A stretch of DNA of 64,000 nucleotides from Candidatus Latescibacterota bacterium (GTDB lineage Bacteria; Latescibacterota; UBA2968), in assembly GCA_965204745.1 (NCBI GenBank), contig OZ242010.1, forward strand, positions 1,344,001-1,408,000. Direction: 5' to 3'. The stretch's first letter is position 1; the number at the start of each line of letters is the position of its first letter. The position numbers were made by a program, and so were the translations under genes. Below, one piece after another: positions 1 through 54,624 of this stretch. The notes beneath the pieces were generated by a model. That model was not told where the DNA came from, made no database searches, and saw nothing but the letters and a program-made list of their open reading frames with translations.

Positions 1-3000
1 GCGGGCAATACGCCACATTTACTCGCGAGATCAACAAGCGGATACACACGCCGACCGTGGTGCTGTTCAAGACCGCAACCGATCTGTTGACCCTATCCTT
101 TGTTCACCGCCGCGAACACAAGCGCGATTCCAACCGCGATGTGCTCGGCCATGTGTCGCTGATCCGAGAGATCGATCCCATCAAGCCGCATCGCGCTCAC
201 TTAGATATTTTGTCCGATTTATCGCTACCGCAACGGTTGGCGTGGATGGACGCCCACGACAAGCCGCACAATTTTGATGGCCTGTTGGCCGCTTGGCTCA
301 ACGCGCTGGATACCGAAGCACTGAACAGGCGGTTCTACGGGGATTTGTTCGGCTGGTTTGAATGCGCCATCCGCGAGGCCCAATTCCCGTCTTCTCGTCA
401 GAAGCGGACGTTGCCACCTGAAGAACATATCATCCGCTTGATCACTCGGTTGATGTTCGTTTGGTTCATCAAGGAAAAAAGATTGATCGCAACGGATCTG
501 TTCATCGAGGATCAGATCGCCAGGTTGCTGAAAAACTATGACCGCGACGCGGGCGATTCGTATTATCGCGCTGTGTTGCAAAATCTGTTTTTCGCTACGC
601 TCAACACCGAGAAAAACAGACGCGGTTTTAGCCAGGGGAGCAACGCCACGCACCGCGATTTCTCCCGCTATCGGTACGAGAACGAGATCGCTGACCCCAC
701 CCAGTTGCTCGACCTGTTCGATCAAACGCCGTTCATCAATGGCGGCCTGTTTGATTGCCTCGACAGCGAGGCGGGCACCCGCGCTGGCGGCTATCGCATC
801 GACTGTTTCACCGACACCCCCGGTCAACGCCGCGACTATTCTATCCCCAACCGCCTGTTTTTTGACCATGACGGGCTGATTCCCCTGTTCAACCGCTACA
901 AGTTCACGGTGGAGGAGAACACGCCTGTCGAGCAAGAAGTCGCGCTTGACCCCGAGCTTCTCGGCAAGGTGTTCGAGAATCTCCTCGCCGCGTACAACCC
1001 CGAAACCCGCGACACCGCCCGCAAGCAAACAGGCTCGTACTACACGCCGCGCCCTGTGGTGGATTACATGGTGGATGAGGCATTGGTCGCGGCGTTGGCT
1101 CAAGCGTGTTCGCCAAGCGATGCCGACACAGGGTTTTGGCAAGATCGGTTGCGCTATTTGTTGGACTACGAGGATGCGTTCAACGACGCCCATGAACTGT
1201 TTGAAGAGGATGAAACCGCGGGCATTGTGCGGGCGATTTCCGAGATTAAAGTGCTCGATCCTGCGGTCGGTTCCGGCGCGTTCCCGATGGGCATGTTGCA
1301 CAAGATGGCGATGGCCTTGCGTCGCCTTGACCCGGATAACCAACGCTGGGCCACCTTGCAAAAAGAACGCGCTCGCGCCAAGGCAGACGCGGCGTTTGAT
1401 ACGAAAAATCAGCGAGAACGCGATGCCGAGTTGCTGGCGATCAGCGAGATCTTCGAGCGGTATTCGGGCGACTTTGGGCGCAAGTTGTATCTGATTCAAA
1501 ACAGCATTTTCGGCGTGGATATTCAGCCTATCGCCACGCAGATCGCCAAGTTGCGATTTTTCATCTCCCTCGCCATCGAGCAAGAGCCGGACGAGAACGC
1601 GCCCAACTTCGGCATCAAGCCCTTGCCCAATTTGGAAACGCGCTTTATCGCCGCGGATACGCTGATGCAACTCAAGGCCGCGGATCAACTGGACTTGTTC
1701 CGCCAACAAATTGAAGCCCTGCAAACAAAACTGACGGAAAACCGCGAGCGACATTTTCACGCGACCACGCGCCCGAAAAAACTCGCGTGCAGAGATGCGG
1801 ACAACCAGTTGCGCCGCGCATTGGCAGACGAACTCAACTCTGCCGGCCTTCCCGAAGATGATGCGAAGAAAATCACGCATTGGGATCCCTACGACCAAAA
1901 CGCCAAAGCCGACTGGTTCGATCCCGAATATATGTTCGGCATCGCGGACGGGTTCGACATCGTGATCGGCAATCCGCCGTATGTCGAGTCGCGGAATAGC
2001 TTGTTGTCGGCTGAACAGAAAACATCCTATTGCAACCGAGTTCTTTCCGATTGGGGAGAAACACTCCCGCGTGGCAGTGATCTGCTGATTTACTTTTATG
2101 CCCGTGCCGCAAAACTATTGTCCGAGACCGGCTGTGGTTGTTTTATTACGCAAAACGCTTGGCTCAGTACCGACTATGGGCAGAAATTTCAAACATTCTC
2201 CATTGGAAAATTCTCATTCGAGAAAATCATCGACACTTCCGCCAAATTTTTTTTGGACGCCAAAAGCCAAAATATCAATGCGGTCATCACACTTTTTACC
2301 CCGAAACCGTTGCAGACCATAGAATACGGAATCGCCAACAGCGATATGGCGATGGCCTCAAAAAGACATATTGCCGCCCGACAAACGATGAAGTGGGGGC
2401 ATCTCTTTGCCATGCCGCCATTCTTCGCAGATATATTGACAACAATGGCTACCAACGCCGGCGCGGGCAATACGATCACCTTCGGACAAGGGCTCAATTT
2501 TCCCTTGAAGAAACGCAACGAGTTGGATGCCGATGTGCCCGTCATTGTCAAAGCCGCCCAGTTTGTCGCGGTTTCGGCTGACGACAAAATCGGGAAAGCG
2601 TTGGTTTCATCTCGCAGAAAAGACAAAATTCCAGCCCTCATTCTGCCGCGTGGAATCGGCAGTAGGCACTATTGCACCTTTAATTTGTGCCGAGCATTTT
2701 CATACAGCCATGTGGAACTCTATCTCCCCGATGACCTTTGGGAATCCGATTTGCACTATTGTCTATGGGCGTACCTGAACTCATCGTTTGTCTGTCTTTT
2801 CCGAGAGATTACGGGGCGGAAAAATCTCGGTGGCGGTATGTTGAAAGCCGAAGCAACGGACATGAAGGCGTTGCCCGTCAATTTTGACTTTGATTTCGCC
2901 GCAGATGCGAAGGAGGTTTTTGACACTGTGACGCACCGAGCACCCTTGCCCATAGCAGAGGAAGTGACCACGCGAGCGCATTTGTCGCTCGATGACATGA

Positions 3001-3104
3001 TTGCCGACTACTTCGGCTTTCGAGGACTAACAGAAACAATTAGACAGACCCTCGTCGAACATGTCCATTTCCGGGTCGACAGAGCACGCGCCCAAAGTGT
3101 CTGA
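1..3104 (+). CDS. Eco57I/type IIG-like N6-adenine DNA methyltransferase with C-terminal specificity region, copy A (5' end outside window)
   Basis: Motifs GSYYTPR, DPAVGSGAF (SAM binding) and IGNPPYV (catalytic). Colinear with 49087-51070 up to NPPYV. Confidence 0.9.
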   Translation, partial: GQYATFTREINKRIHTPTVVLFKTATDLLTLSFVHRREHKRDSNRDVLGHVSLIREIDPIKPHRAHLDILSDLSLPQRLAWMDAHDKPHNFDGLLAAWLNALDTEALNRRFYGDLFGWFECAIREAQFPSSRQKRTLPPEEHIIRLITRLMFVWFIKEKRLIATDLFIEDQIARLLKNYDRDAGDSYYRAVLQNLFFATLNTEKNRRGFSQGSNATHRDFSRYRYENEIADPTQLLDLFDQTPFINGGLFDCLDSEAGTRAGGYRIDCFTDTPGQRRDYSIPNRLFFDHDGLIPLFNRYKFTVEENTPVEQEVALDPELLGKVFENLLAAYNPETRDTARKQTGSYYTPRPVVDYMVDEALVAALAQACSPSDADTGFWQDRLRYLLDYEDAFNDAHELFEEDETAGIVRAISEIKVLDPAVGSGAFPMGMLHKMAMALRRLDPDNQRWATLQKERARAKADAAFDTKNQRERDAELLAISEIFERYSGDFGRKLYLIQNSIFGVDIQPIATQIAKLRFFISLAIEQEPDENAPNFGIKPLPNLETRFIAADTLMQLKAADQLDLFRQQIEALQTKLTENRERHFHATTRPKKLACRDADNQLRRALADELNSAGLPEDDAKKITHWDPYDQNAKADWFDPEYMFGIADGFDIVIGNPPYVESRNSLLSAEQKTSYCNRVLSDWGETLPRGSDLLIYFYARAAKLLSETGCGCFITQNAWLSTDYGQKFQTFSIGKFSFEKIIDTSAKFFLDAKSQNINAVITLFTPKPLQTIEYGIANSDMAMASKRHIAARQTMKWGHLFAMPPFFADILTTMATNAGAGNTITFGQGLNFPLKKRNELDADVPVIVKAAQFVAVSADDKIGKALVSSRRKDKIPALILPRGIGSRHYCTFNLCRAFSYSHVELYLPDDLWESDLHYCLWAYLNSSFVCLFREITGRKNLGGGMLKAEATDMKALPVNFDFDFAADAKEVFDTVTHRAPLPIAEEVTTRAHLSLDDMIADYFGFRGLTETIRQTLVEHVHFRVDRARAQSV

Positions 3105-3156
3105 ATCGCGGATTAAACGGATTACGCGGATGAACGCGGATTGGGTTGGCAGGTAG
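3098..3156. repeat. Palindromic TGTCTGAATCGCGGATT element, left arm only
   Basis: TGTCTGAATCGCGGATTAAACGGATTACGCGGATGAACGCGGATTGGGTTGGCAGGTAG matches the arms at 9617, 48350, 52358 and 54389. Supplies GTC-TGA to the MTase. Confidence 0.85.
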
Positions 3157-3275
3157 AGAGAAGAAAGTGAAATGTAGAGGACGCGAGTCGTGCAGAGAAA
3201 GTGAATGAAAGCGATTTTAGGGGCGTGGTCCCCGTGCCCGCCCAAGGATAATGACACGACAGGGAGTTCTGTAGC

Positions 3276-3560
3276 ATGGATATTGGATTTATATGGGACG
3301 AAGACAAATATCGAGAAGTGCAAAGAAAGCATGATGTCAAGTTTTACGAGGTGGTTTTCGCATTTGATGACCCAAAAGGATACGAAACCTTAGATCCAGA
3401 AGGCCATGAAGATCGGTGGATGTGGGTAGGCGCAACAGTTAATGGTCGGGTGTTGGCTGTGATCTGCTCCGAAGAAGATGCCCCACTCTATCGCCTTATC
3501 ACCGCATTTGATGCAGAAGGGAGATTTCTCAATGAGTACTCCAACAGAAGTGGAATTTGA
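3276..3560 (+). CDS. BrnT-family ribonuclease toxin
   Basis: F.WD..K.....KH.V.F.E....F.DP N-terminus, E.R...VG and RLITA motifs; 94 aa. Confidence 0.8.
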   Translation: MDIGFIWDEDKYREVQRKHDVKFYEVVFAFDDPKGYETLDPEGHEDRWMWVGATVNGRVLAVICSEEDAPLYRLITAFDAEGRFLNEYSNRSGI

Positions 3561-6500
3561 TTATCAAACGTATATGAAGGAAAACACCCCCGAAATTTAT
3601 CGTGGGCCAGAGGCGCGTCGAAAAAGACGAGAGGCCGCCAGAGCGCGGGTTTTTCCAAACAAGACCCACATCGTTCGTGCCGCCGACCTCGAACAATATG
3701 CGAATAGCATAAACAGCCAAACCGTAATACCAGAATTGATCTACTTGCTTGTAAAGCAGTCTATCTCTAATGCCTCTGTGTGCCGCATTCCCTACGGAGA
3801 CGCTGTAAATCAAAGCGGTTGGGATGGGATCGTTGAAGCTGAATCGGCGTTTCTCGAGTTCGTCCCGGATGGCAGATCGTACTGGGAGATCGGCACCGGA
3901 AACGATCCGCAGGCCAAGGCGACCAAAGACTTCAAAAAGAGAACAAGCCAACTCTCCGCCGATGATCGGGCCCAAGGTTCATTTGTTTTTGTGACTCCTC
4001 GTTTCGCTGGGTGGGGAGCACCGGAACAAATAAGGTGGCTGGAACGCAGAAAAGATAAAGGTTGGAAAGATATCCGCATTATCGACGGCGTTAAGCTCGC
4101 CGATTGGTTGCGGGAATTTCCCGCCGTGGGCCAGTGGATGGCAGGAAAGATAGGCTTGTCGAGCAACTCAGGTGTGATTTCTACTCCGAGGGAGCATTGG
4201 GAAAATATCGTCTCTCTGACTAAACTGGGCGATCCCCCCATTCCACCAACACTATTCACTGAAGGGCGTAGCCATGCCTGCAATGCGCTTCAGGCACTAT
4301 TCGAAGGCACCTCGCAAAAGTTGCAGTTGTTGATGTTTGCAGAAGGCGAGCAAGATGTCGCCGATTTCGTTGCAGCTTACATTGAGACTCTTGATGAAGA
4401 TACCGCAAGAGATTACGCCAACCGATGCCTCTATATCGCTGAAGAAGACGCTTGGCGTACGGTTGTAGAAGTTCGGAAATCACATGTTTTGGTCGCTAAT
4501 CCTCGGCTCAATTTGGAGTCGGACGAGCGAGCCGGTCTCCTAACAATCGCCACGCGAAAAGGACACGCGGTCATAGTTCCTCTTTGCGGTGCATTTGCAA
4601 GGGGAAATTCTGAGATCATCAAACTACAAAGTCCATCTCAACTCCAGATAGAAAAGGTTCTGAAAGAGGCAGATTACTCGGATGTACGCTCGCGAGAACT
4701 AGCGGGCATTGGAGGTGATCGACTGTCCGCTTTACTCAGAAACTTACGTGGTTTTGGGGCTGTGCCGCCCTATGCAAAATGGAAAAATGCGAGACTCATT
4801 GCACAGGCAGGGCTCGCCGGAAAGTGGGATGGAAAAAGCGCGGCAGATCGGGAGGCTTTGGAGAGTTTGTTGAAAAAAGAATATGGGGAGTGGATCGAGA
4901 CACTGAGACCTGACGCGCTTCGCTCGGACTCTCCCCTGATTCAACGCGATGAAAAATGGCGATTCGTCGTGCGGGGGGAAGCATGGAGCGCGTTGGGGAA
5001 CAGAATAACGGATGAAGACCTCAATCGGCTCGAAGAGACTGCCGTTGCCGTTCTAGGGGAAAGAGATCCAGAATTTGACTTGCCCAAAGAGAAACGATTC
5101 GCGGCGAGCATTCACGGCAAACAACTGAAACATTCCCGTCTGCTCCGCGAAGGCATGGCAGAAACACTCGCTCTTGTAGGCAGTCGCTCAGAAGCACTTT
5201 CCGAGTGTTCGTTTAGAAAAGCCGAATACGTGGCTGTTCGCACCGTCCAACGACTTTTGGCGAGTGCGAAATGGGACCGCTGGGCGAGTTTGGATTCGCT
5301 GTTGCCACTTCTCGCTGAAGCGGCTCCCAACGAGTTTCTCGCCGCTGTCGAGTCAGCATTGGTGGATTTAGACCAATCTCCATTTCACGAGGTTTTTGCC
5401 CAAGAAAGCAGTGGAGGCATAGGAGGGGGGAACTACATGAGTGGCCTATTGTGGGCTTTGGAAACCCTTGCCTGGCATCCAGATTTCCTTTCTCGGGTAG
5501 CCGTTATCCTATCCGACCTCGCTTCGATTGATCCCGGAGGGAATTGGGCAAATCGGCCGTTTAATTCCCTCTTCGATATCTTCTTACCTTGGCATGTGCA
5601 AACGAGTGCCTCACTCGAGAAACGAAAGGCAGCTATCAAAAACGTGCTCCAAAAGCAACCAGAAGTAGGTTGGCAGTTAATTCTAGGTCTATTACCACAC
5701 AATCATGGTTTCACTATTGGATGCCATCAACCGACTTGGCGGGACTACATTCCGAGAGACTGGAAGGATGATGTCTCGGGGGCAGAGTATTGGGAACAAA
5801 TAACGATTTACACCGAAATGGCAATAGAACTCGCAAAGACGAGCACTGAGAACCTGGGCGAGTTGATCAACTGTATGTCCGATTTACCCAACTCTGCACT
5901 CGATAATCTTCTAGAACACTTAGCCTCAGAAGAGGTCGTAGCTTTGCCCGAGGCTGATCGCGTTTTAATCTGGGAAAGGTTAGATGGTCTAGTGCGCCAA
6001 CACCGAAAATTTGCGGACGCTGAGTGGGCAATGCCGAAAGGCACCATTTCAAGAATTGAGACTGTGGCAAATACCTTGGCACCCGAGACTCCAGTACGGA
6101 AATATTGTTATCTATTTAATAATCAAGGTTTTGATCTTTTTTTTGATGATACGGAAAATTACGAGGAACAAAAAAAACGCCTTGATAAAGCTCAACGGGA
6201 TGCTGTGCAAAAAATTCTCGATACAGGAGGCGTGTCTGCTGTACTGGATTTCGCTCAGAGTGTTGCTATACCTGGCAAAGTTGGAGATGCTTTGAGTAGT
6301 ATCGAAAATGAAGATATTGAGGTGGAAATTCTTCCGTCTCTGCTTAATACTGAAGACGAAACCGCAAAGCGGGTTGTATCTGGATTTGTTCAGGGACGAT
6401 TCCAGAAATCGAGTTGGACTTGGGTTGATCAAGTTCTCGGGAACTCTTGGAACGACACCCAGAAAAATGCGTTCCTAATTTTGCTTCCATTTGAGGATGG

Positions 6501-7467
6501 CGTCTGGAGTCGAGTAGAAGAACACCTCGGCAGAGAGAATGAGAGGCTCTATTGGCAAAAGGTCGCCGTAAATCCGTTTGAACCAGAGCGAGACTTGACT
6601 TTGGCGATTGAGAAGTTGCTCGAATATGAACGGGCTCCCGAAGCTGTCCTTTGTGTTTCTCGCACCGTCAACGACAGAGAAAGATCTAAGGAAGACCTTG
6701 CAATTCGAGCACTTCTCTCGGTGCTGGAGAAGTCTGATGTGGATGTTCAGCTAGATCAATATCAGACTGTCGAGGTGATAAAGTGCCTTCAGAAATCCCC
6801 CTCCGTTGACCGAGAAGTTCTTTGCGAGATTGAGTGGTGCTTCCTATCAATGTTGCGTTTCTCAACCGGATCACCCGTTACACTCGAAAGTCGTCTTGCT
6901 TCGGAGCCTGCCTTCTTCGCTGAGATCGTCGCTTACGCCTTTCGTTCAAAGAACGAGGCTGAAAGCGACGACGAACCGAGCGCAGAAAGGAAGGCGACGG
7001 CCATGAATGCCTACAGACTTCTAAACGAATGGAGAGGGTGCCCCGGCAAACTTTCCGATGACGCCTTTAACAAAAAAATATTCACGAATTGGTTGAATGA
7101 GGCCATGCGAATTACGAAAGAGACCGGTCACAGTGAGATCGCTCAGAATCGGATCGGCCACGTATTGACAAATGCACCCAAAGATCCCAACGGCCTATGG
7201 ATACATCGAGCAGTCGCGTCGGCATTGAACGAAAGAGACGCAGGAAAAATGCGTTCTGGCTTTACGATTGAGCTTTACAATCAGCGAGGCGTCCATGGCT
7301 TCACTGCCGGAAGAGAAGAGCGAGAACTGGCGCAACGAAATCGCGAAAAGGCAGAGGCCCTTGAAACAGCAGGTTATTCGAGATTTGCAACTGCAATGCG
7401 CGAGTTTGCAAGGGGCTATGAACGAGATGCGGAACGTGATGCACAGAGAAGCCCATTCGAAGAGTGA
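3532..7467 (+). CDS. 1311-aa putative defence protein: N-terminal PD-(D/E)XK-like domain plus long helical region, with a ~40-aa antitoxin-like leader
   Basis: Long ORF with RBS GAAGGGAG before ATG 3532, overlapping brnT. GWDG...YWEIG...KAT.D..KR pattern resembles a restriction-nuclease fold. Confidence 0.6.
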   Translation: MSTPTEVEFDYQTYMKENTPEIYRGPEARRKRREAARARVFPNKTHIVRAADLEQYANSINSQTVIPELIYLLVKQSISNASVCRIPYGDAVNQSGWDGIVEAESAFLEFVPDGRSYWEIGTGNDPQAKATKDFKKRTSQLSADDRAQGSFVFVTPRFAGWGAPEQIRWLERRKDKGWKDIRIIDGVKLADWLREFPAVGQWMAGKIGLSSNSGVISTPREHWENIVSLTKLGDPPIPPTLFTEGRSHACNALQALFEGTSQKLQLLMFAEGEQDVADFVAAYIETLDEDTARDYANRCLYIAEEDAWRTVVEVRKSHVLVANPRLNLESDERAGLLTIATRKGHAVIVPLCGAFARGNSEIIKLQSPSQLQIEKVLKEADYSDVRSRELAGIGGDRLSALLRNLRGFGAVPPYAKWKNARLIAQAGLAGKWDGKSAADREALESLLKKEYGEWIETLRPDALRSDSPLIQRDEKWRFVVRGEAWSALGNRITDEDLNRLEETAVAVLGERDPEFDLPKEKRFAASIHGKQLKHSRLLREGMAETLALVGSRSEALSECSFRKAEYVAVRTVQRLLASAKWDRWASLDSLLPLLAEAAPNEFLAAVESALVDLDQSPFHEVFAQESSGGIGGGNYMSGLLWALETLAWHPDFLSRVAVILSDLASIDPGGNWANRPFNSLFDIFLPWHVQTSASLEKRKAAIKNVLQKQPEVGWQLILGLLPHNHGFTIGCHQPTWRDYIPRDWKDDVSGAEYWEQITIYTEMAIELAKTSTENLGELINCMSDLPNSALDNLLEHLASEEVVALPEADRVLIWERLDGLVRQHRKFADAEWAMPKGTISRIETVANTLAPETPVRKYCYLFNNQGFDLFFDDTENYEEQKKRLDKAQRDAVQKILDTGGVSAVLDFAQSVAIPGKVGDALSSIENEDIEVEILPSLLNTEDETAKRVVSGFVQGRFQKSSWTWVDQVLGNSWNDTQKNAFLILLPFEDGVWSRVEEHLGRENERLYWQKVAVNPFEPERDLTLAIEKLLEYERAPEAVLCVSRTVNDRERSKEDLAIRALLSVLEKSDVDVQLDQYQTVEVIKCLQKSPSVDREVLCEIEWCFLSMLRFSTGSPVTLESRLASEPAFFAEIVAYAFRSKNEAESDDEPSAERKATAMNAYRLLNEWRGCPGKLSDDAFNKKIFTNWLNEAMRITKETGHSEIAQNRIGHVLTNAPKDPNGLWIHRAVASALNERDAGKMRSGFTIELYNQRGVHGFTAGREERELAQRNREKAEALETAGYSRFATAMREFARGYERDAERDAQRSPFEE

Positions 7468-7540
7468 CCCGCCTCATTTCTGAGATCACCGCTACGAATC
7501 AGTGCTCGTTTGTCTGCTCATTGACTGAAAGGACTGAAAA

Positions 7541-8020
7541 TTGGAGATACAGATTTTGAGCGTATATGCAGATACGTCTGTTTTCGGGGGCGCATTCGAT
7601 GAAGAATTTGAGCAAGCCAGTCAGTCCTTTTTCGATATGGTTCGACGGGGGGATTTTAACCTGCTAACATCTGTCGTGGTGCAAGAGGAAATTGAGCATG
7701 CACCTGCGAAAATTGGAGAGCTCTTTGACGAGATGCTCAATTTTGCAGAAATTGTAGAGATTTCTGAAGGTGCTTTGCAACTCCAGCGATCTTATTTAGA
7801 TGCAGAAATCGTAACAAAAAAGTGGGCAACAGACGCGCTCCATGTTGCGTTAGCCACTATCGGGGAGTGTTCTATGATCGTAAGTTGGAATTTCAGACAT
7901 ATCGTGCATTTTTCAAAAATTTCGCTCTACAATGCGGTCAACACCCGTTCTGGCTACTCAAATATTGCTATCCATTCTCCTCAAGAGGTGATTGACTATG
8001 AAGACGAAGAAGACTTTTAA
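7541..8020 (+). CDS. PIN-domain (VapC-like) toxin
   Basis: VYADTSVFGG, DALHVALAT and IVSWNFRH motifs. Confidence 0.85.
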   Translation: MEIQILSVYADTSVFGGAFDEEFEQASQSFFDMVRRGDFNLLTSVVVQEEIEHAPAKIGELFDEMLNFAEIVEISEGALQLQRSYLDAEIVTKKWATDALHVALATIGECSMIVSWNFRHIVHFSKISLYNAVNTRSGYSNIAIHSPQEVIDYEDEEDF

Positions 8021-8177
8021 TTGTGTCGAAATGAAACGGCGTGGTGCGAAAATAATCCACGACCAAATCGCAACTCTGACGCCCAAAGAGCAGCTAATTT
8101 TCTGGCAGAAACGCAACGAGTTGCTAAAAAAGCGTCAAAAAAAAATAAAAACGAAGTATAAGAATTCTGCGGATTAA
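7998..8177 (+). CDS. Small basic protein, likely antitoxin partner of the PIN toxin
   Basis: 59 aa, overlaps the PIN gene end, RBS GAGGTG. Stop codon lies inside the palindromic element. Confidence 0.6.
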   Translation: MKTKKTFNCVEMKRRGAKIIHDQIATLTPKEQLIFWQKRNELLKKRQKKIKTKYKNSAD

Positions 8178-8298
8178 GCGGATTAAGCGGATGAACGCGG
8201 ATTGGGTTGGCAGGTGGCGCAAAGGACATAGCGGGTGTGAAGGGCGGTGGGGTTAATCCGCGCAATCTCCTAATCCGCGAAAATCCGCGATTCAGACA
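8166..8298. repeat. Palindromic element with degenerate left arm
   Basis: GCGGATTAAGCGGATTAAGCGGATGAACGCGGATTGGG ... AATCCGCGATTCAGACA. Confidence 0.8.
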
Positions 8299-8343
8299 AG
8301 GGACTGACCACTGCCGAGGCGGTGTTTCTTGAAAGGAACTTTG

Positions 8344-8661
8344 ATGACAGCCCAAACAAAGACAGGTGCCGTTGCGAATATCGTCAGTGAGACCCTGGCG
8401 CAACGCTTCGGAGACGAGTTTGTGTTTGACCCAATTATCGTAGAACCCGAAATAGACCGCGATGGCGAAGAGTACCTGCACATTACCATTGTATTCGACG
8501 GGAACCAGAAACACCTGGACCCAGAATGGACCGCTGGCCTGCTCGGGCGGATTTTTCCAAAATTGATAGAACTGGGAATAGACGATTTCCCAAGCAAGTC
8601 ATTTGTGGAGAAGTCCGAATGGGAGGCACTCCAAAAAGGAAGGTACTTTGAACCCGCGTGA
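8344..8661 (+). CDS. Hypothetical acidic protein, possible atypical MNT-like partner of the HEPN gene
   Basis: RBS AAAGGA; overlaps the downstream HEPN gene. Lacks the canonical GS...DxD motif. Confidence 0.5.
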   Translation: MTAQTKTGAVANIVSETLAQRFGDEFVFDPIIVEPEIDRDGEEYLHITIVFDGNQKHLDPEWTAGLLGRIFPKLIELGIDDFPSKSFVEKSEWEALQKGRYFEPA

Positions 8662-9124
8662 TCTGCTGAGAATCGCCAGACAATTGGCACGCGGGCCCAA
8701 CAGAGGTCGCCCCCGAGAAGCCAACCTGAGACGGGCTGTGAGTGCCACCTATTACGCGCTGTTCCACGCGCTGGCAACCTGTTGCGCCGACATGCTAGCT
8801 GGCACGACCAGAGCCAACCGCAGCCAACAGGCATGGCGGCAAGCATACCGAGCATTGGAACACGGATACGCCAAAAGCCAATGTCTGAATCAATCTGTTA
8901 TGACCAGGTTCCCGGCAGAAATCCGGAAATTTGGTGAAGTGTTCGTAGATATGCAAAGGCAGCGGCACCGCGCCGACTACGACCCTGGCGCGACATTCAC
9001 CCGTTCAGGCGTCCTACTACGCATTGAAGAAACCGAGAAAACCATAAAGCAGTTTGAGCGCACAACGCCAAACGACCGCCGCGCATTCGCCATCTACGTA
9101 CTGCTTAGATTCAGAAATGAGTAA
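8648..9124 (+). CDS. HEPN-domain protein
   Basis: RRAVSATYYALFHA and RHRADY motifs; TTG start after GGAAGG. Confidence 0.75.
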   Translation: MNPRDLLRIARQLARGPNRGRPREANLRRAVSATYYALFHALATCCADMLAGTTRANRSQQAWRQAYRALEHGYAKSQCLNQSVMTRFPAEIRKFGEVFVDMQRQRHRADYDPGATFTRSGVLLRIEETEKTIKQFERTTPNDRRAFAIYVLLRFRNE

Positions 9125-9171
9125 AAAAATCCTGCCAATCCTCAAATCCCAAATAAAGGATGTAGCGAACA

Positions 9172-9313
9172 CAAACGCCGTAAGTAGGGCAGAGGACGCG
9201 GATTGGGTAGCACAGGTAAAACGAAGGGTGCAGGTGGTACGAAGGACATAGCGGTTGTGGGGAGCGGGGTAATCCGTGAAATCCCAAAATCCGCGTAATC
9301 CGCGATTCAGACA
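9172..9313. repeat. Palindromic element, right part only
   Basis: Homologous to ~54470-54613; ends AATCCGCGTAATCCGCGATTCAGACA. Confidence 0.8.
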
Positions 9314-9324
9314 AGAAAAATAAA

Positions 9325-9555
9325 ATGCGGAACATCAAAGCCAAATTTTTTGAAGGCGTGCTCATACCGCAGGAGAAGCTCGACCTCAAAGAAGGTGCGG
9401 ATGTGGTCATAGCCATCACTGCCCCGCCGGATCGCACACTTGAGACGCTGCGAGCAACAGCGGGGGCATGGAAGGGAACACATGATCCAGAAGCATTGAA
9501 ACAGGCCATCTACGCTGGCCGGCGCACTCTTTCTCGGCCTCAACCAAAGTTGTAA
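9325..9555 (+). CDS. DUF104/AF2212-like antitoxin, copy A
   Basis: IKAKFFEGVLIP.E.LDL.EG..V motif; near-identical to 54625-54858; upstream of vapC. Confidence 0.75.
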   Translation: MRNIKAKFFEGVLIPQEKLDLKEGADVVIAITAPPDRTLETLRATAGAWKGTHDPEALKQAIYAGRRTLSRPQPKL

Positions 9556-9558
9556 TGT

Positions 9559-9675
9559 ATGCAATATCTCGTAGATACAGATTGGGTCATTGACCACCTA
9601 CACGGGCGCGGGAAACTGTCTGAATCGCGGATTAAACGGATGACGCGGATGAACGCGGATTGGGTTGGCAGGTAG
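9559..9675 (+). pseudogene. vapC fragment truncated after 17 codons by the palindromic element
   Basis: MQYLVDTDWVIDHLHGR is identical to the start of 54862, then the frame runs into the element. Confidence 0.85.
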
Positions 9676-9840
9676 GGCAGAGGGCGCAGATGACACAGAC
9701 GCCGTAAGTAGGGCAGAGGACGCGGATTGGGTTGGCAGGTGACGCGAAAGGCATAGCAGATCGGAAGGACACAGCGGGTGTGGATGGGTGGGTTTTTAAT
9801 CCGCGTAATCCCCAAATCCGCGTAATCCGCGATTCAGACA
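9617..9840. repeat. Complete palindromic element (224 bp)
   Basis: Terminal inverted repeats TGTCTGAATCGCGGATT / AATCCGCGATTCAGACA. Confidence 0.9.
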
Positions 9841-9928
9841 AGGGGCGATCACAGCCCACTGACCACTTGATCAGGATAGCGCAGTTGCCTTCTCCCCTCT
9901 CCCTTCTTACGTCTCACCGATGTTTTAC

Positions 9929-9973: not shown

Positions 9974-10791
9974 GGTTCTGTTGACATTTGGGATATTTTG
10001 AGTTACTCTGTGTGTATGTCAAACCTTATTCTTTCTGCGAACCAGTGGCCTAAAATTCTCGCATTCATCCGCGAATGCCCTCGCGTCTATGTCGGCGAGG
10101 AAGCCGGTTGCAAACGCTTCATTGAAGCGGTTCTGTGGGTGATGCGCTCGGGTGGTCAGTGGCGTCAGTTGCCCGCACAGTACGGGAAGTGGAACACAGT
10201 CTATAAACGCTTTGCTCGCTGGTGCCGGTATGGCGTGTGGGAACGCATGCACCAGCATTTTACGTCTGATCCAGACTTGGCATGTCTGATCATTGACAGC
10301 ACTGTCGTGCGTGCTCATGCCTGTGCAGCGGGTGCCTCAAAAAAAAAGGGGGGCAAGCCGCGCAAGCCCTCGGCAAGAGCCGAGGCGGGTTCAGCACCAA
10401 AATCCATCTCTGCACAGATGCGCGTGGCCTCCCGCTCCGGTTTCGACTCACACCGGGACAAACCCACGATATCACGCAAGCCGAAGCGTTAATCGCTGGG
10501 TATGAGAGCCGATCTGTCATCGCGGATAAGGGCTATGATTCACAAGCGTTTCTGGACGTCCTTTCTCACCATGGACAGGTTGCCGTGATTCCGCCCCGGT
10601 CTTATCGCAAGACCCCGCGTGATTATGATCGCCATCGGTATAAGCAACGCAATTTGATTGAGCGGTTGATTGGAAAAATGAAGCAGTATCGCAGGATATT
10701 TGCTCGCTTTGAGAAACTCAGCACGAGTTATCGAGGCTTTCTCGCTTTTGCGGCCACGCTCATCGCTCTAAAACAAAATGTCAACAGAACC
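9974..10791 (+). mobile_element. IS5-family insertion sequence (IS427-like)
   Basis: Perfect 16-bp TIRs GGTTCTGTTGACATTT / AAATGTCAACAGAACC, each flanked by TA; two-ORF transposase. Confidence 0.9.
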
Positions 10792-10794
10792 TAA
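10016..10794 (+). CDS. IS5 transposase OrfA/OrfB joined by a -1 frameshift
   Basis: WRQLP.QYG.W.TVY.RF.RW, IDST, then A9G6 slippery run at 10339-10353. The -1 frame gives SRGGFSTKIH, ADKGYDS and RNLIER. Confidence 0.85.
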
Positions 10795-44950: not shown

Positions 44951-45107
44951 AACCCTTACTTCCAAGATACAAGAGGGGAGACGCAAGACGTAAGAGGCAA
45001 GAGGCAAGAGGGGTGGCCTTCTCATGTCTTGCCTCTCACCTTTCACCTTTTTGGGCGATGCGTGGTGCTCGCCCGAAGATACAAGCGTCTGGACTGGGGA
45101 GTATCAA

Positions 45108-48100
45108 ATGCAGAGGGACAAACACATCTTGGACAATCGCCGCGCTACGGTTGTGGGTTATCTGCGCGAACAGTTGCGTGCCGCAGAGGTATTCCGGCTG
45201 GTATCGGCGTATTTTACGATTTACGGGTATGGCGCACTGCAAAGCGAATTGCGCGGCATTGGGGATGTGCGTTTTCTCTTTGGGGATCCGGCATCGGTGG
45301 GCGAGGTGGATCCCGGTGGAAAGCAGGAACAATCCTTTGCGTTGACCGAAGGCGGTCTGTCGCCGAATCTCGCATTGTCACAAAAATGGCTTGCGCGGCA
45401 ATGCGCGGACTGGGTGCGTCGCAAAGGAGTCAAAATCCGCTCGGTCGGCAAATCCAATTTTCTGCACGGCAAAATGTACCTCGCCGAATCTGCCCAGGGC
45501 CGCGCGGCAGTGGTCGGCAGTTCCAACTTTACCCGCAATGGCTTGGGCGGCGGGACGAGTGCAAATGTGGAAATCAACTTGGCGACCCGAGATGCTGGTG
45601 TGTGCGCGGAACTGCGGGCGTGGTTCGACGACCTGTGGGCGGACGAGGCGTTGACTGTGGATGTGAAACGAGACGTGTTGGCGGCCCTGAACCGCATCGG
45701 CGAGGATCACGCGCCGGAGTTTATTTATTTTAAGACGCTGTACGAGTTGTTCCGCGCAGATATCGAGGAGAGACAGGACGGGGAAACCCAACTGGCAGAG
45801 ACGCATCTTTACGATACTGAAATTTGGAATGCCCTGTACGGTTTTCAGAAGGACGGGGCCAAAAGCGCGATTGCCCGCTTGTTGCGGCACAACGGGTGCA
45901 TTTTGGCCGATAGCGTGGGCTTGGGCAAGACCTACACCGCGCTGGCCGCGATCAAGTTCTTCGAGTTGCGAAACGAGCGCGTGCTGGTCTTGTGCCCGAA
46001 AAAACTGCGCGAAAACTGGGCCTTGTATCCGGTGGCGAACGCCCATGTTCACAATCCCTTTCCCGCGGATCGCTTTGGGTACACCCTGCTCTCGCATACG
46101 GACTTGTCCCGCAACAGCGGGCGCGCAGGCGATATTGATTTGGCGCATTTCAACTGGCGCAATTTCGATCTGGTGGTCATTGACGAGTCGCACAATTTTC
46201 GCAACGACACCAAGCCGCGCACGGGCGACGACGGCGAGATTCGCCACAGCCGGTACTCGCGGCTGTTGGAAGAGGTGATTGAGGAAGGCACGAAAACAAA
46301 GGTGCTGATGCTTTCGGCAACGCCGGTCAACACCTCGCTGATCGACCTTCGCAACCAGATCTATTTGATGACCGAAAAGCGCGAGGATGTGTTCCGAGAC
46401 AGCTTGGGCATCGGGGATATCGGCGCGTTGCTCGCGCAGGCTCAACGGGCGTTTAAGGCTTGGGAGACCAAGGCGGATTCCAAAAGAGATAAGTCCGAGT
46501 TGGCGGCGATGCTCGGCGCGGATTTTTTTGGGTTGCTCGGCGGGGTTTCCATTGCCCGGTCGCGGCGGCAGATCGAAATGTTTTACGCCGAGGAAATGGA
46601 CCGAATCGGAAAATTCCCCGCGCATCAAAAGCCGGAAAATGCCTATCCGAAAACCGATCTCTGCGGCGACTTGTCCTATCAAAAGTTGTCCGATCAAATT
46701 GGGCAATTCGCCTTGTCCATCTATCGCCCATCCAGCTATGTGACCGGCGAAGAAGCGAAGAAACGCTTGGCAAAAGAAAAAAAAGACCTGCACTTCAATC
46801 AGGCGGACCGCGAGCGGTTTCTCATCGGCATGATGCGGACGAACTTTCTCAAGCGTTTGGAGAGTTCCGCGCATTCGCTTGCGAAAACCCTCGGGCGCAC
46901 CGTTGGCAAAATCGACGATATGGTTGCAAAAATAGACCGCTACGCGCAACGGACCGCGCAGGACGCCCGAGCCGATATTTTGCCGGACGATGACGAAGAC
47001 GACGAGGAGTTTCTCGTCAATCGGGCGCGCACGCCCTACCACCTGCGCGAGTTGGACTTGGATGCGTGGAAAAGGGATTTGCAGAGAGACCGCGCAATTC
47101 TCACCTCGGTGTGGGAAAGGGTCAAAGCCATCGACCCGCAACGGGATGGCAAGCTCAGGGCGATTGCGGAACGCATTCGAAACAAGGCGCGCAATCCGAC
47201 GCGTAACCGCGATGGCAAGCCCAACCGCAAGATGCTGGTGTTCACCACGTTCAAAGACACGGCGCGCTATTTGTACGACAACCTGACCGGTCTGGCCCGC
47301 GAACTGAATATCGACATTGCGATGGTCTCTGGCGACGAAACGCACACCTCGGTTGGCGACAACGATTTCAACGCCATCCTCACCGACTTCGCCCCTGTCG
47401 CACGCAACCGCGGGGCAACAGATGACACCGCTGAAATCGACCTGCTGATCGCCACGGACTGCATTTCAGAAGGGCAGAATTTGCAGGACTGCGACACCGT
47501 GCTCAACTACGATATTCACTGGAACCCGGTGCGCCTCATCCAGCGACTCGGGCGCGTTGACCGCATTGGCAGTCGCAACCCCTTTGTGCAGATGATCAAC
47601 TATTGGCCCACGCGGGATATGGATGTTTATTTGCGCCTGCAACACCGGGTTGAAGCCCGCATGGCCTTGGCCGATGCAGCGGCCAGCGGGGACGACGATC
47701 CGTTGCGCGAAGACGCCGCACAGACGGAGATCAATTTCCGAGACGAACAACTGAAGAAATTGCGCGAAGAGGTGGTGGATTTTGACGCCTTATCCGATGG
47801 CGTCGTGATGAGCGATTTTACGTTCGATTACTTTTTTGCGCAGTTGTTGCGGTATTTGGAGAAAAACAAGGCCGCGCTGGAAGCAATGCCCAATGGGGTT
47901 TATGCCATCACCCGTGGGCATGGCGATACCGCACGCCCGGGCGCGATATTTTTCTTTCGCCAGCGAGACGCGAGCGCGGACAGACGAGAAAAAGCCGCCA
48001 GCCCGGTGCATCCCTACTACGCGGTGTATGTGCGCGACAGCGGCGATATTCGCTACGGTTGTGCCCATGCCAGACAGGTGTTGGAATTGTTTGAATCGGT

Positions 48101-48356
48101 CGCCGTTGGAAAAACCGAACCCCTGCAAAAACTCTGCGACCAGTTTGACCACGAAACCCAAAACGGTCGAGACATGACCCGTTACAACCGACTTTTGGAC
48201 GCGGTGATGGCCCACATCAGCGGGGCGAATAAGACGACTTACATCCAACACCTGGGCCTCCGCGGCCCACGCGATTTCAAGCTACCGGCAAAAACCAAAG
48301 CCCAAAATGCCACCTTGGATTTTGAACTGGTAACGTGGCTGGTGATAACTGTCTGA
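45108..48356 (+). CDS. PLD-nuclease / SNF2-like helicase fusion
   Basis: HGKMY...GSSNFT (PLD), ADSVGLGKT, DESH, SATP, SEGQNLQ and QRLGRVDRIG motifs. Confidence 0.9.
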   Translation: MQRDKHILDNRRATVVGYLREQLRAAEVFRLVSAYFTIYGYGALQSELRGIGDVRFLFGDPASVGEVDPGGKQEQSFALTEGGLSPNLALSQKWLARQCADWVRRKGVKIRSVGKSNFLHGKMYLAESAQGRAAVVGSSNFTRNGLGGGTSANVEINLATRDAGVCAELRAWFDDLWADEALTVDVKRDVLAALNRIGEDHAPEFIYFKTLYELFRADIEERQDGETQLAETHLYDTEIWNALYGFQKDGAKSAIARLLRHNGCILADSVGLGKTYTALAAIKFFELRNERVLVLCPKKLRENWALYPVANAHVHNPFPADRFGYTLLSHTDLSRNSGRAGDIDLAHFNWRNFDLVVIDESHNFRNDTKPRTGDDGEIRHSRYSRLLEEVIEEGTKTKVLMLSATPVNTSLIDLRNQIYLMTEKREDVFRDSLGIGDIGALLAQAQRAFKAWETKADSKRDKSELAAMLGADFFGLLGGVSIARSRRQIEMFYAEEMDRIGKFPAHQKPENAYPKTDLCGDLSYQKLSDQIGQFALSIYRPSSYVTGEEAKKRLAKEKKDLHFNQADRERFLIGMMRTNFLKRLESSAHSLAKTLGRTVGKIDDMVAKIDRYAQRTAQDARADILPDDDEDDEEFLVNRARTPYHLRELDLDAWKRDLQRDRAILTSVWERVKAIDPQRDGKLRAIAERIRNKARNPTRNRDGKPNRKMLVFTTFKDTARYLYDNLTGLARELNIDIAMVSGDETHTSVGDNDFNAILTDFAPVARNRGATDDTAEIDLLIATDCISEGQNLQDCDTVLNYDIHWNPVRLIQRLGRVDRIGSRNPFVQMINYWPTRDMDVYLRLQHRVEARMALADAAASGDDDPLREDAAQTEINFRDEQLKKLREEVVDFDALSDGVVMSDFTFDYFFAQLLRYLEKNKAALEAMPNGVYAITRGHGDTARPGAIFFFRQRDASADRREKAASPVHPYYAVYVRDSGDIRYGCAHARQVLELFESVAVGKTEPLQKLCDQFDHETQNGRDMTRYNRLLDAVMAHISGANKTTYIQHLGLRGPRDFKLPAKTKAQNATLDFELVTWLVITV

Positions 48357-48722
48357 ATCGCGGATTACGCGGATTACGCGGATGAACGCGGATTGGGTTG
48401 GCAGGTAGGGCGGAGGCGCAGAAAATACAAACGCCGCAAGTGGGGTAAAGGAAGGACGCGGATTGGGGAGCGCAGATAGGGCGGAGGGCGCAGATGATAC
48501 AGACGCCGCAAGTGGGCAGAGGAAGCGGATGAAAAGCGAAAGGCACAGCATTCAGCCCTCGTCACTCCGGCGGAAGCCGCTTTTGTTTTTTGTTCGTCCA
48601 AAGATAAGCGGAGGATGTAGCGGGTGCGAAGGTCGTAGGTGGTGCGGAGGACGCAGTAGGTGCGGGGTTGGTGCGGGGTAATCCGTGCAATCCCCTAATC
48701 CGCGTAATCCGCGATTCAGACA
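48350..48722. repeat. Complete palindromic element (373 bp)
   Basis: Both TIRs present; supplies the helicase stop codon. Confidence 0.9.
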
Positions 48723-48734
48723 AATGGACCATCC

Positions 48735-51700
48735 ATGAATAACAACATCAGAGAACAAATCGGGCATGCCTTGGGCGCGCTGGCGGATGGGGATTTTGTG
48801 GTGGGGGCGCGAGACATGCTCGCGGTGCTCGGCTATGAAAGCACGCGCACCTTAGACATCTCGGGCAGGGTGAATGATTTTATCTCTCAATTCCCCGCGC
48901 CAAACGAGAACACGCAGACCGAGCAAGTGTTCCGTGAGAACGCCCAATCCGTGCGGATTCTCTTTCAGGTGACGGATACTGAAATCGCGGCGCAGAATAC
49001 GCTGTTTGACACGGACGATTTTGACCGTGGCAATGCGCGGAGTTTTCTCTTTGTCGCTGTGGCGGTGAACGGCGCGTCCTATTCGCGCGGGCAATACGCC
49101 ACATTTACTCGCGAGATCAACAAGCGAATCAACGTGCCGACTGTGGTGCTGTTCAAGACCGCAACCGATCTGTTGACCCTATCCTTTGTTCACCGCCGCG
49201 AACACAAGCGCGATTCCAACCGCGATGTGCTCGGCCATGTGTCGCTGATCCGAGAGATCGATCCCATCACTCCGCATCGCGCTCACTTAGATATTTTGTC
49301 CGATTTGTCGCTACCGCAACGCTTGGCGTGGATGAACGCCTACGACAAGCCGCACAATTTTGACGGCCTGTTGACCGCTTGGCTCAACGCGCTGGATACC
49401 GAGGTGCTGAACAGGCGGTTTTACGGGGATTTGTTCGGCTGGTTTGAACGCGCCATCCGAGAAGCCACATTCCCGTCTTCTCGTCAGAAGCGGACGTTGC
49501 CGCCTGAAGAACATATCATCCGCTTGATCACTCGGTTGATGTTCGTTTGGTTCATCAAAGAGAAAAGACTGATCGCAACGGATCTGTTCATCGAGGAGCG
49601 GATCGCCAGTTTGCTGAAGAATTACGACCGCGACGCGGGCGATTCGTATTATCGCGCTGTGTTGCAAAATCTGTTTTTCGCTACGCTCAACACCAAGAAA
49701 AACAGCCGCGGTTTTAGCCAGGGGAGCAACGCCACGCACCGCGATTTCTCCCGCTATCGGTACGAGAATGAAATCGCTACTCCCGACCAGTTGCTCGGCC
49801 TGTTCAAGCAAACGCCGTTCATCAATGGCGGCCTGTTTGATTGCCTCGACAGCGAGGCGGGCACCCGCGCTGGCGGCTATCGCATCGACTGTTTTACCGA
49901 CAACCCTGCCCAACGCCGCGATTATTCTATCCCCAATCGCCTGTTCTTCGACGATGATGGGCTGATTCCCCTGTTCAACCGCTACAAGTTCACGGTGGAG
50001 GAGAACACGCCTGTCGAGCAAGAAGTCGCGCTTGACCCCGAGCTTCTCGGCAAGGTGTTCGAGAATCTCCTCGCCGCGTACAACCCCGAAACCCGCGACA
50101 CCGCACGCAAGCAGACAGGCTCGTACTACACGCCGCGCCCTGTGGTGGATTATATGGTGGATGAGGCATTGGTGGCAACACTGGCTCAAGCGTGTTCGCC
50201 AAGCGATAGCGACACAGATTTTTGGCAAGATCGATTGCGCTATTTGCTGGACTACGAGGATGCGTTCAACGACGCCCATGAACTGTTTGAGGAAGGGGAA
50301 ACCGCGGGCATTGTGCGGGCGATTTCCGAGATTAAAGTGCTCGATCCGGCGGTCGGTTCCGGCGCATTCCCAATGGGCATGTTGCACAAGATGGCTATGG
50401 CCTTGCGTCGTCTTGATCCGGACAACCAACGCTGGGCAACCTTGCAAAAAGAACGCGCTCGCACAAAGGCAGACGCGGCGTTTGATACGAAAAATCAGCG
50501 AGAACGCGATGCCGAGTTGTTGGCGATCAGCGAGACCTTCGAGCGGTATTCGGGCGACTTTGGGCGCAAGTTGTATCTGATTCAGAACAGCATTTTCGGC
50601 GTGGATATTCAGCCTATCGCCACGCAGATCGCCAAGCTGCGATTTTTCATCTCCCTCGCTATCGAGCAAGAGCCAAACGAGGACGCGGACAACTTCGGCA
50701 TCAAACCCTTGCCCAATTTGGAAACGCGCTTTATCGCCGCGGATACGCTGATGCAACTCAAAGCCGCGGATCAACTGGACTTGTTCCGCCAACAGATTGA
50801 TGCCCTGCAAACAAAACTGACGGAAAACCGCGAGCGACATTTTCACGCGACCACGCGCCCGAAAAAACTCGCGTGCAGAGATGCGGACAACCAGTTGCGT
50901 CGCGCATTGGCAGGCGAACTCAACTCTGCCGGCCTTCCCGAAGATGATGCGAAGAAAATCACGCATTGGGATCCCTACGATCAAAACGCCAAAGCCGACT
51001 GGTTCGATCCCGAGTATATGTTCGGCATCGCGGACGGGTTCAACATCGTGATCGGCAATCCGCCGTATGTGCGTCAGGAAAATATCGGCCCGCACAAGTC
51101 CTCCATCCTCGCCCTCTATTCTAATGCCGCGACTGCCCGTTCTGACCTGTACTGCTACTTTTACGCACGCGGCCTGCAACTGTTGCGCGATGGTGGAATG
51201 CATGTTTTCGTCTGTTCTAATAGCTGGCTGGACGTGGGCTACGGGGCGAAACTCCAAGACCTTCTGTTGAAAAACGCCCATATACAAGCCATCTACGAAA
51301 GTGCTGTCGAGCGGCAGTTTTCCACAGCGGACATCAACACCATCATCAGCGTCATTCGCAAGACAACCGCCAATGACGACGATGCCACCCGGTTCGTACA
51401 TCTGCTGGAATCCTTTGAAGCCGCCGTTGCCGAAGGCGGCAAGCGTCGAGAAATCGTCAAAAGCCGGGAGGAACTCATCGCGGCGGCGACCAACCCACAA
51501 AGCAAAAAATTCATCGGCGACAAGTGGGGCGGCAAATACCTGCGTGCGCCGAACATCTATCATGCCATTCTGAACAAGTGCGCCGACAAGTTGGTTCGCT
51601 TGGGCGATATCGCGAAAGTGCGACGCGGGATAACTACCGGGGCTAACGACTTCTTTTACCTGACCCGCGACCGGATTGCCGGGTTTGGCATTGAGCCAGA

Positions 51701-52549: not shown

Positions 52550-52562
52550 AGAGGAGGACAAC

Positions 52563-54613: not shown

Positions 54614-54624
54614 AGGAAAATAAA

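Follow-up and report, generated by a model that had tools for sequence, protein, structure and literature searches.

Genes at the brnT locus

We analyzed a stretch of 64,000 nucleotides (nt) from Candidatus Latescibacterota bacterium (assembly GCA_965204745.1, contig OZ242010.1, positions 1,344,001 to 1,408,000), which is called the window here; positions are counted from its first letter. The subject of this report is a toxin gene, brnT, together with the very long open reading frame (ORF) that overlaps its 3' end. The brnT gene (3276..3560) encodes a 94-amino-acid (aa) RNase toxin of the BrnT family. The long ORF (3532..7467) starts from a conserved ATG at 3532, ends with a stop codon at 7465-7467, and encodes 1311 aa. 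These two genes, and all parts of the long ORF mentioned below, are on the + strand. Judging from the sequence, three parts of an ordinary brnTA pair are retained in the window, namely the toxin gene, the overlap and the first approximately 40 codons of the antitoxin gene, and the remainder of the antitoxin gene is exchanged for something else.

The product of brnT matched the Pfam family BrnT_toxin (PF04365) with an E value of 1.3e-13 and 51.4 bits (cut-off, 34.5), and in a family search of its own genome it scored 51.1 bits, which is also above the cut-off. Its sequence matched one PDB chain, 7vd7_A, named 'toxin' (E 4.7e-7). Passages of two papers (PMC10714953, PMC13284704) name a Lys-His pair, a conserved Phe and, in Brucella, Arg72 as residues that matter for the toxicity or RNase activity of BrnT relatives. 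The window BrnT retains K18, H19 and F30, and H19 and F30 are invariant in an alignment of 13 copies. The protein belongs to an acidic subfamily in which 'ITAFDA' replaces the usual 'ISAR' stretch, and the position of the 'ISAR' arginine is occupied by Phe (F78) throughout this subfamily. The net charge of the window BrnT is -9 and its isoelectric point (pI) is 4.5, the range in the subfamily being 4.3-5.1. The subfamily is without the basic 'ISARR...RER' stretch that this genome's two other BrnT proteins possess.

The overlap of brnT with the long ORF is 29 nt (3532..3560). The sequence-only reading, by which we mean an earlier annotation of this DNA made without database searches, had pointed out this overlap, and the ORF list and the translations bear it out. 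A Shine-Dalgarno-like GGGAGA is positioned 8 nt 5' of the ATG of the long ORF. A promoter scan of 2900-8300 found 2 promoter-like sites against 4.7 expected, and gave no usable promoter or terminator signal.

We then compared the junction with those of 80 metagenome loci carrying a canonical BrnA of the same subfamily. Positions could be assigned to the two genes in 56 of these loci. There, brnT and brnA overlapped by 29 nt in 29 loci, by 20 nt in 19, by 23 nt in 4, by 26 nt in 1 and by 17 nt in 1, and a 69-nt gap separated the genes in the remaining 2. This comparison indicates that the 29-nt overlap in the window is not due to chance. Furthermore, the same BrnT subfamily was encoded upstream of the canonical BrnA in 68 of the 80 loci (54 of the 68 matches were near full length), and these upstream BrnT proteins possessed a C-terminal 'RIITAFDAEGRW.DEY'-like motif. 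Because canonical loci have the same BrnT subfamily and overlapping genes, the window can be said to keep the native toxin/antitoxin junction.

The N-terminal tip of the long ORF corresponds to BrnA

Codons 1-42 of the long ORF (3532..3657) encode the motif EFDYQTYM and, after it, a helix rich in Arg. This tip is presumed to be the element that neutralises BrnT. Its residues 24-40 have a net charge of +6, and it carries 'ARRKRREAARAR'.

In order to characterize the relatives of this peptide, we built a profile (A1) from 11 peptides and searched it against 1.84 billion cluster representatives. The search gave 89 proteins at E<=0.001, 33 of them at E<=1e-10. When the 89 proteins were examined with Pfam, 25 were BrnA_antitoxin proteins (PF14384) of approximately 105-120 aa, with the peptide first and a ribbon-helix-helix (RHH) domain after it. 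Among the others, 17 contained TPR, 4 contained FRG (3 of these also TPR) and 2 contained TIR_2, and the rest were short or belonged to no family. A scan of single genomes per species also gave eight loci that matched only residues 1 to approximately 40 (or 1-69) of the query; according to the record titles, these came from metagenome-assembled genomes of Latescibacterota, Poribacteria and Gemmatimonadota.

An alignment of 40 sequences (A3) showed that the window peptide corresponds to BrnA residues 1 to approximately 42, and that it ends immediately before the 'RITIRID'-type strand of the RHH domain. F9, D10, Y11, I22, G25, R32 and E34 are kept in at least 90% of the 40 aligned sequences, in canonical and chimeric proteins alike. 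That is, the profile search, the Pfam assignment of its matches and the alignment all confirm the earlier suggestion that the first approximately 40 aa resemble the N-terminus of BrnA.

AlphaFold2 predicted the peptide (residues 1-44) as two short helices with low confidence. Co-folding of BrnT with peptide 1-48 gave scores of 0.29 and 0.22, which are below the 0.32 mark and were obtained without controls. A sequence search of the PDB with the large protein, a canonical peptide-type BrnA and the genome's other BrnA found no solved BrnA or BrnTA complex, and no relative of the peptide was found in viral contigs. Two metagenome cluster representatives show other arrangements of the same parts: P0123 (118 aa) has the peptide twice in tandem, and P0136 (314 aa) has BrnT, the peptide and TPR repeats in a single ORF.

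The second half of the antitoxin is missing

The long ORF is without the C-terminal RHH domain of BrnA, since the homology stops before the RHH strand. When six canonical BrnA proteins were compared with the whole window by tblastn, only 3532-3609 matched, and no RHH part was found. The earlier statement that the window has no separate brnA thus agrees with this result. The RHH domain of BrnA is described as operator- or DNA-binding in passages of PMC11980606 and PMC10714953.

The reading frame was inspected for starts that would yield the large protein alone. Both in the window and in its orthologue at locus L002, there is no in-frame ATG, GTG or TTG after codon 15 and before codon 69, and codon 69 itself is part of the nuclease domain described below, within its conserved first helix. 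Because no in-frame start lies between codons 15 and 69, the fusion is obligate. The sequence-only reading had considered that translation might start downstream of the tip, and no usable start for this was found.

We also counted substitutions over codons 11-38, which lie outside the brnT overlap. Between the window and the other copy of brnT and the tip that this genome contains, there were 10 synonymous changes per 19 sites and 3 non-synonymous changes per 65 sites. Between the window and L002, the values were 6 per 19.3 sites and 1 per 64.7 sites, respectively. Although these counts come from 28 codons of related sequences, and the sites are therefore few, their direction is clear and points to purifying selection on the tip.

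Relatives of the large protein

The large protein matched no family of Pfam or NCBIfam. A word-seeded search with 8000 scored candidates gave at least 747 relatives at E<=0.001. Among the 120 relatives listed, most were 1261-1282 aa long and covered 95-97% of the query, and their sources included Gemmatimonadota, Idiomarina and Verrucomicrobiota. In addition, 24 plasmid records carry homologues.

The N-termini of 42 members were read. Thirty of them start with 'MDHTHIV' or a close variant, which corresponds to residues 42-48 of the window protein. The full extension is present in 7, namely the window protein and six proteins of 85-97% identity; a shortened, related extension is present in 4, and 1 starts with 'MSTHIV'. 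These findings indicate that the large body is a complete member of a family of approximately 1270 aa, found in many phyla and on plasmids, which is joined to the tip at about its fourth residue.

A maximum-likelihood tree was made from the bodies only, with the N-termini removed. In this tree, the 12 extended or eroded forms made up one clade (support by the Shimodaira-Hasegawa-like approximate likelihood ratio test, SH-aLRT, 100), with the 'MSTHIV' form nested among the full forms. This grouping fits a single fusion event followed by erosion. The full fusion is also present in a second species of the genus. In L001, the sole eroded form of which the DNA was examined, there is no brnT.

These results bear on two other explanations of the long ORF. 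The first, which the sequence-only reading had raised, is that a large gene was recently inserted in frame into an intact brnA. The junction does lie inside brnA, immediately before the RHH strand. However, the 3' half of brnA is not found in the window, and the RHH remainder is also absent in L002. Moreover, the fusion is common to representatives of 85-97% identity and to another species, and it predates the split from the clade with partial peptides. A recent insertion is therefore very improbable, and we abandoned this part of the earlier proposal. The second is that there is no fusion at all, the large protein being translated from a start downstream of the peptide. The fact that most family members start at 'MDHTHIV' would favor such a start. 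However, the start codon of 'MDHTHIV' is absent from the window gene, and in both the window and L002 the next in-frame start would be codon 69, within the nuclease helix. We regard this second explanation as having almost no chance of being correct.

The genes next to the homologues are often restriction or defence genes. Eco57I-type type IIG enzymes are found beside them in the window and at loci L001, L002 and L007, a type III system with an SNF2 helicase at L003, Dam with a PD-(D/E)xK protein at L005, and Mrr, caspase and HSP70-like genes at L010. The neighbours at L004, L006 and L011 are ordinary. At L001, the Limisphaerales homologue (5926-9822 of that locus) lies in three overlapping frames after a split Eco57I-type methylase, which is related to the gene upstream of brnT in the window. 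As it is spread over three frames, the L001 homologue is likely to be a pseudogene.

Distant homologues with 27-31% identity (L009, 5683-9759, and rhizobial and other plasmids) have an N-terminal HTH_3 domain, and their annotation is that of transcriptional regulators. The homologue in Rhizobium pPR4 is followed by another hypothetical protein, of approximately 1280 aa. Because look-alikes in the ESM Atlas were named 'HigA antitoxin', we considered the HTH_3 forms as a possible second case of coupling to a toxin. No toxin gene was found directly upstream of the HTH_3 forms in L009, Rhizobium pPR4 and a Thalassospira plasmid, and PADLOC assigned their N-terminal helix-turn-helix (HTH) to the control-protein type of restriction-modification systems. 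With no adjacent toxin and an HTH of the control-protein type, these forms lend no support to a second toxin coupling, and this candidate was rejected.

The large protein resembles Avs proteins in its plan

AlphaFold2 models of the large protein, calculated with a 57-row alignment, reached a predicted local distance difference test (pLDDT) score of 84 over residues 1-450 and of 88 over residues 421-1311. The models contain a nuclease-like domain and a long helical body, as the sequence-only reading had supposed, and three parts can be distinguished in them.

The first part, residues 48-198 (3673..4125), is predicted to have a PD-(D/E)xK nuclease fold, as judged from the AlphaFold2 model, VIA-align and conservation. 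VIA-align gave Z scores of 9.1 for AF1548 (root-mean-square deviation 2.8, 112 residues), 8.7 for R.BspD6I, 8.7 for the FokI cleavage domain and 7.9 for MspJI. Three residues, D98, E119 and K129, are invariant, and E68 is almost invariant. Both the fold and D98/E119 agree with a PD-(D/E)xK core; K129 stands outside the ExK triad, 10 residues later and in the next helix.

The second part, residues 213-415 (4168..4776), is an AAA+/STAND-like alpha/beta domain without a Walker A loop. Its best VIA-align values were Z 8.5 with the nucleotide-binding domain 1 of ClpB and 7.9 with RFC. At the position of the P-loop, the window protein has 'AEGEQD' and other members have 'AESxxD' or similar sequences; GxxxxGK[ST] was found in 0 of the 57 aligned members. 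The third part, residues 421-1311 (4792..7464), is an all-alpha body of approximately 890 aa, in which a short helix/strand unit is followed by a HEAT/ARM-like alpha-solenoid. Foldseek matches of the solenoid were of the karyopherin/CAND1 type with E values of about 1e-5, and were generic.

The top Foldseek match overall was Avs4 (8dgf_A, E 3.6e-6), and VIA-align aligned 319 residues of residues 49-445 with it at Z 6.8. The PADLOC model PD-Lambda-4_A (PDLC03991, 1283 positions) gave a short, weak match to the window protein (E 0.0029). Similar weak matches were obtained with 7 of 18 homologues (E 0.0011-0.0099), and all of the matches, that of the window protein included, were colinear, profile positions of approximately 561-737 corresponding to protein residues of approximately 562-769. 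According to passages of a preprint (bioRxiv 10.64898/2026.01.04.697583), PD-lambda-4 is Avs8, a capsid-sensing STAND protein, and the Walker motifs of KpAvs8 are degenerate.

The family thus shares with Avs4 (8DGF) and Avs8 an N-terminal PD-(D/E)xK-type nuclease, an AAA+/STAND-like domain and long helical repeats in the same order. It differs from them in that the P-loop is lacking in 57 of 57 members and in that the PADLOC E values of 1e-3 to 1e-2 are far from membership. From these models and alignments, the family reads as Avs-like in its plan, but its aligned members have no P-loop, and we treat it as a putative relative only. It may be described as an uncharacterised family, without a Pfam or NCBIfam model, whose members resemble an Avs protein having lost its P-loop. 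The earlier impression that the body is defence-like is in line with the combination of nuclease, STAND-like domain and solenoid, with Avs4 as the best Foldseek match and with the weak PD-Lambda-4_A matches. A literature search of titles, abstracts and passages found no Avs protein described with an N-terminal antitoxin segment.

The tip and brnT recur before other defence genes

Next, we surveyed 168 genomes of the phylum. The peptide was found in 24 genomes, and 15 module-type copies of brnT (58-100% identity) were found in 14 genomes; a further 35-residue fragment of the BrnT subfamily in G145 is outside this count. All 15 copies are followed by an ORF consisting of the peptide joined to a partner protein, and none of the 15 is followed by a canonical BrnA. 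The partner is Avs-like in 2 copies (the window and G082), an FRG(+TPR) protein in 6, a TPR protein in 6, and an AbiLi/PDC-M38A ATPase in 1. PADLOC identified one of the FRG(+TPR) partners as PDC-S15 (E 1.7e-24), and the ATPase as PDC-M38A (E 4.2e-76) and AbiLi (E 2e-45). One of the six TPR partners has an internal deletion within the peptide. Where brnT is lacking, the peptide stands at the N-terminus of a type II restriction enzyme (PADLOC REase_II, E 8.8e-101), of a type IIG enzyme, and of short decayed ORFs of 53-66 aa. Fusions of the peptide to TIR are present among metagenome proteins.

The second copy in the genome of the window (G000:C1:1550094-1550456, L021) is fused to a protein with FRG and TPR that exceeds 543 aa in length. 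This copy is 89% identical to the window copy over brnT and the first approximately 35 codons, and the repeat fragment that lies 5' of brnT in the window (described below) also lies 5' of it; the homology between these two copies begins near 3096. Neither copy in this genome has an RHH partner of this type. Among the contexts of the module in general, DNA homology begins approximately 30 nt before brnT, extends to window positions of approximately 3640-3650, and then ends. The sequence-only reading had proposed to look for the same fusion elsewhere. We found the tip and brnT before other defence genes, and the seven full-tip members of the large family described above.

A probable chimeric antitoxin

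These findings suggest the following explanation. The 5' part of brnA, that is, its start codon, the 29-nt overlap and approximately 40 codons, has been kept, and the RHH half has been swapped for a defence-type protein of approximately 1270 aa. The tip would still bind and neutralise BrnT, and the Avs-like protein would itself be the antitoxin. We infer that the tip is the toxin-binding part because the only other part of BrnA is the RHH domain, which passages of later papers describe as DNA-binding. The basic helix of the tip would be placed against the strongly acidic BrnT. We give a probability of about 0.6 to this explanation, that of a chimeric antitoxin whose BrnA tip lets the defence protein hold BrnT.

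In such an arrangement, the activity of BrnT would be set by the synthesis, turnover or conformational state of the defence protein. One option is addiction, in which losing or silencing the defence gene would free the RNase. The other is release, in which activation of the sensor or its degradation on infection would free BrnT, which would then act on RNA as a further effector in addition to the nuclease of the defence protein itself. The sequence favors neither addiction nor infection-triggered release.

Several observations weigh against a chimeric antitoxin. The isolated window peptide matched no Pfam family at E<=10, the BrnA model included. The loss of the RHH domain, on comparison with BrnA, removes the operator-binding domain, and autoregulation is gone with it. 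The equivalent of Brucella Arg72 is F78 across the whole subfamily, and the toxin is acidic as well; the activity of this BrnT may therefore differ from that of the BrnT proteins studied. In the chimeras with REase and AbiLi, the partner's own start region is still contained in the ORF (the matches to the partner profiles start at residues 55 and 81, respectively), and thus the unfused protein may also be made from these genes. Furthermore, 11 of the 24 genomes with the peptide are without a module-type BrnT anywhere. The pooled ratio of non-synonymous to synonymous changes per site (pN/pS), calculated from kin pairs over 28 codons, was 0.31 for the peptides without BrnT, and was not above the value of 0.49 for the peptides with BrnT. 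As the ratio of the orphan peptides is not higher, the constraint on the tip does not visibly depend on a toxin in cis. The tip may have a use that needs no toxin in cis, or may guard against an incoming brnT.

The orphan peptides also bear on the explanation that the tip is a relic. In this case, a truncated 5' piece of brnA would supply only a ribosome-binding site, a start codon and a tolerated extension, BrnT would be inactive or handled otherwise, and the two would be uncoupled. The 11 genomes without a module-type BrnT, the short decayed ORFs, the erosion or loss of the peptide within the Avs-like clade while the body was kept, the Phe of BrnT at the Arg72-equivalent position, and the position of the module amid abundant repeat elements in a shuffled island are all consistent with a relic. 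However, the brnT ORF is intact in 14 of the 15 copies of the module (the copy in G081 is partial), and the mean column identity is 80% across 13 aligned copies. Purifying selection also acts on the peptide at positions conserved in true BrnA proteins, and in the contexts seen the peptide is always in frame with a defence gene or visibly decayed from such a fusion. Taking both sides together, we think it unlikely that the tip is only a relic.

Another explanation is that the tip serves for recruitment and is not an antidote. The tip might dock BrnT onto defence proteins as a trans-acting RNase subunit, its Arg-rich helix might complete the acidic toxin, and the complex might be the active form. 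The low pI of the subfamily, which is without the basic C-terminal stretch, and the 'ARRKRREAARAR' of the tip would suit such a recruitment tag. So would the partners that are sensor-only (TPR, FRG+TPR) and are without an enzymatic effector of their own. However, in 68 of the 80 metagenome loci the same BrnT subfamily pairs with a small RHH-bearing BrnA in the classical autoregulated layout. A role of the tip as a recruitment tag is accordingly quite improbable.

The chimeric antitoxin can also be extended to the other partners of the tip. The tip would then be a portable docking and inhibition peptide by which BrnT is plugged in trans onto immune sensors and effectors of many unrelated kinds, namely the Avs-like STAND relative without a P-loop, FRG/TPR and TIR proteins, the AbiLi ATPase and restriction enzymes, and BrnT would be released when the sensor meets a phage ligand, oligomerises or is degraded. 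This extension is tentative, and we are more inclined to doubt it than to accept it. If it holds, it would amount to a modular 'plug-in effector' layer of immunity made from a dismantled toxin-antitoxin pair.

Comparison with known systems

The locus resembles the BrnT/BrnA system of Brucella abortus (brnTA, PF04365/PF14384) in that the toxin gene comes first and is overlapped by the antitoxin gene, and in possessing the Lys-His pair and the N-terminus of BrnA. It differs in that a protein of 1270 aa takes the place of the RHH domain and in the Phe of BrnT at the Arg72 equivalent. The single-chain BrnT-BrnA fusions that passages of PMC11980606 describe join a toxin to an antitoxin, and not an antitoxin to a defence protein. 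In the titles and abstracts searched, no BrnA segment fused to defence proteins was described; Table S2 of PMC11980606, a list of multidomain BECR-fold proteins, is possibly relevant here.

In multidomain antitoxins, small domains neutralise the toxin and Panacea may act as a sensor, according to the abstract of PMC10440598, and CapRel is named as a capsid-sensing system in passages of bioRxiv 10.64898/2026.01.04.697583. The long ORF resembles Panacea antitoxins and CapRel in having a short, presumably neutralising element plus a separate domain proposed to sense or regulate. It differs from them in that the added part is a whole defence protein that also occurs independently, and in that one segment is spread over many partners.

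Toxin-antitoxin pairs and large NLR-like sensors are usually seen as separate defence devices. In this locus, the two are physically connected, and at least seven kinds of defence protein show the same connection. Should the tip neutralise BrnT, it would define a minimal BrnT-binding peptide and would be a case of an antitoxin trading its DNA-binding domain for a sensor. BrnT would then be either a toxin whose release an immune receptor could control, or one that makes the defence gene hard to lose.

Other genes and repeats in the window

Upstream of brnT, a type IIG restriction-modification-like methyltransferase gene is cut by the start of the window (3..3104, + strand; Pfam Eco57I, E 1.2e-28; PADLOC REase_MTase_IIG, E 2.8e-64). 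It is followed by the left-end fragment of a palindromic intergenic element (3094..3182, + strand; repeat families D1/D2), which resembles repetitive extragenic palindromes or miniature inverted-repeat transposable elements (REP/MITE) and forms the 5' edge of the duplicated brnT module. Elements of this family are approximately 150-230 nt long with inverted ends of 25-26 nt, and their 78 matches in the genome are clustered in few regions. In the window they lie at 3094-3182, 8155-8300, 9169-9315 and 9613-9842, and near 48347, 52355, 54385 and 55252. The copies have a single orientation and are located between defence-type genes, like the punctuation of a cassette array. In view of this common orientation and of the inverted ends, integron attC-like sites were considered as a speculative candidate for these elements. 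The element at 9169-9315 is a right-hand part without a left end. Together with the left-end fragment at 3094-3182, it brackets approximately 6 kb; besides brnT and the large gene, this segment contains a PIN gene and two small genes.

The PIN-domain gene (7541-8020; PIN_3, E 3.2e-6) directly follows the large ORF, and a 61-codon ORF (7992-8177) overlaps its 3' end; these two may be a toxin-first PIN pair. After them come an ORF of 110 aa that belongs to no family (8329-8661) and an overlapping ORF of 173 aa (8603-9124). A homologue of the 110-aa ORF adjoins the large gene in L002 (10296-10613), although the gene order differs there. This position beside the L002 large gene suggests that the pair travels with the locus. 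A small AF2212-like protein (9325-9555; PF01954, E 3.5e-7) stands alone between repeat elements. An IS4/IS5-type transposase in two ORFs (9998-10492 and 10585-10794; DUF4096 and a DDE_Tnp_1_2 tail) lies at the border between the island and a housekeeping-looking region.

A second defence-type cluster is located at 45024-55374, and the same repeat elements serve as separators in it. Its genes encode a PLD and SNF2 helicase protein (1110 aa), an Eco57I-type type IIG enzyme (1209 aa), a TIR and TPR protein (627 aa) and a PIN protein.

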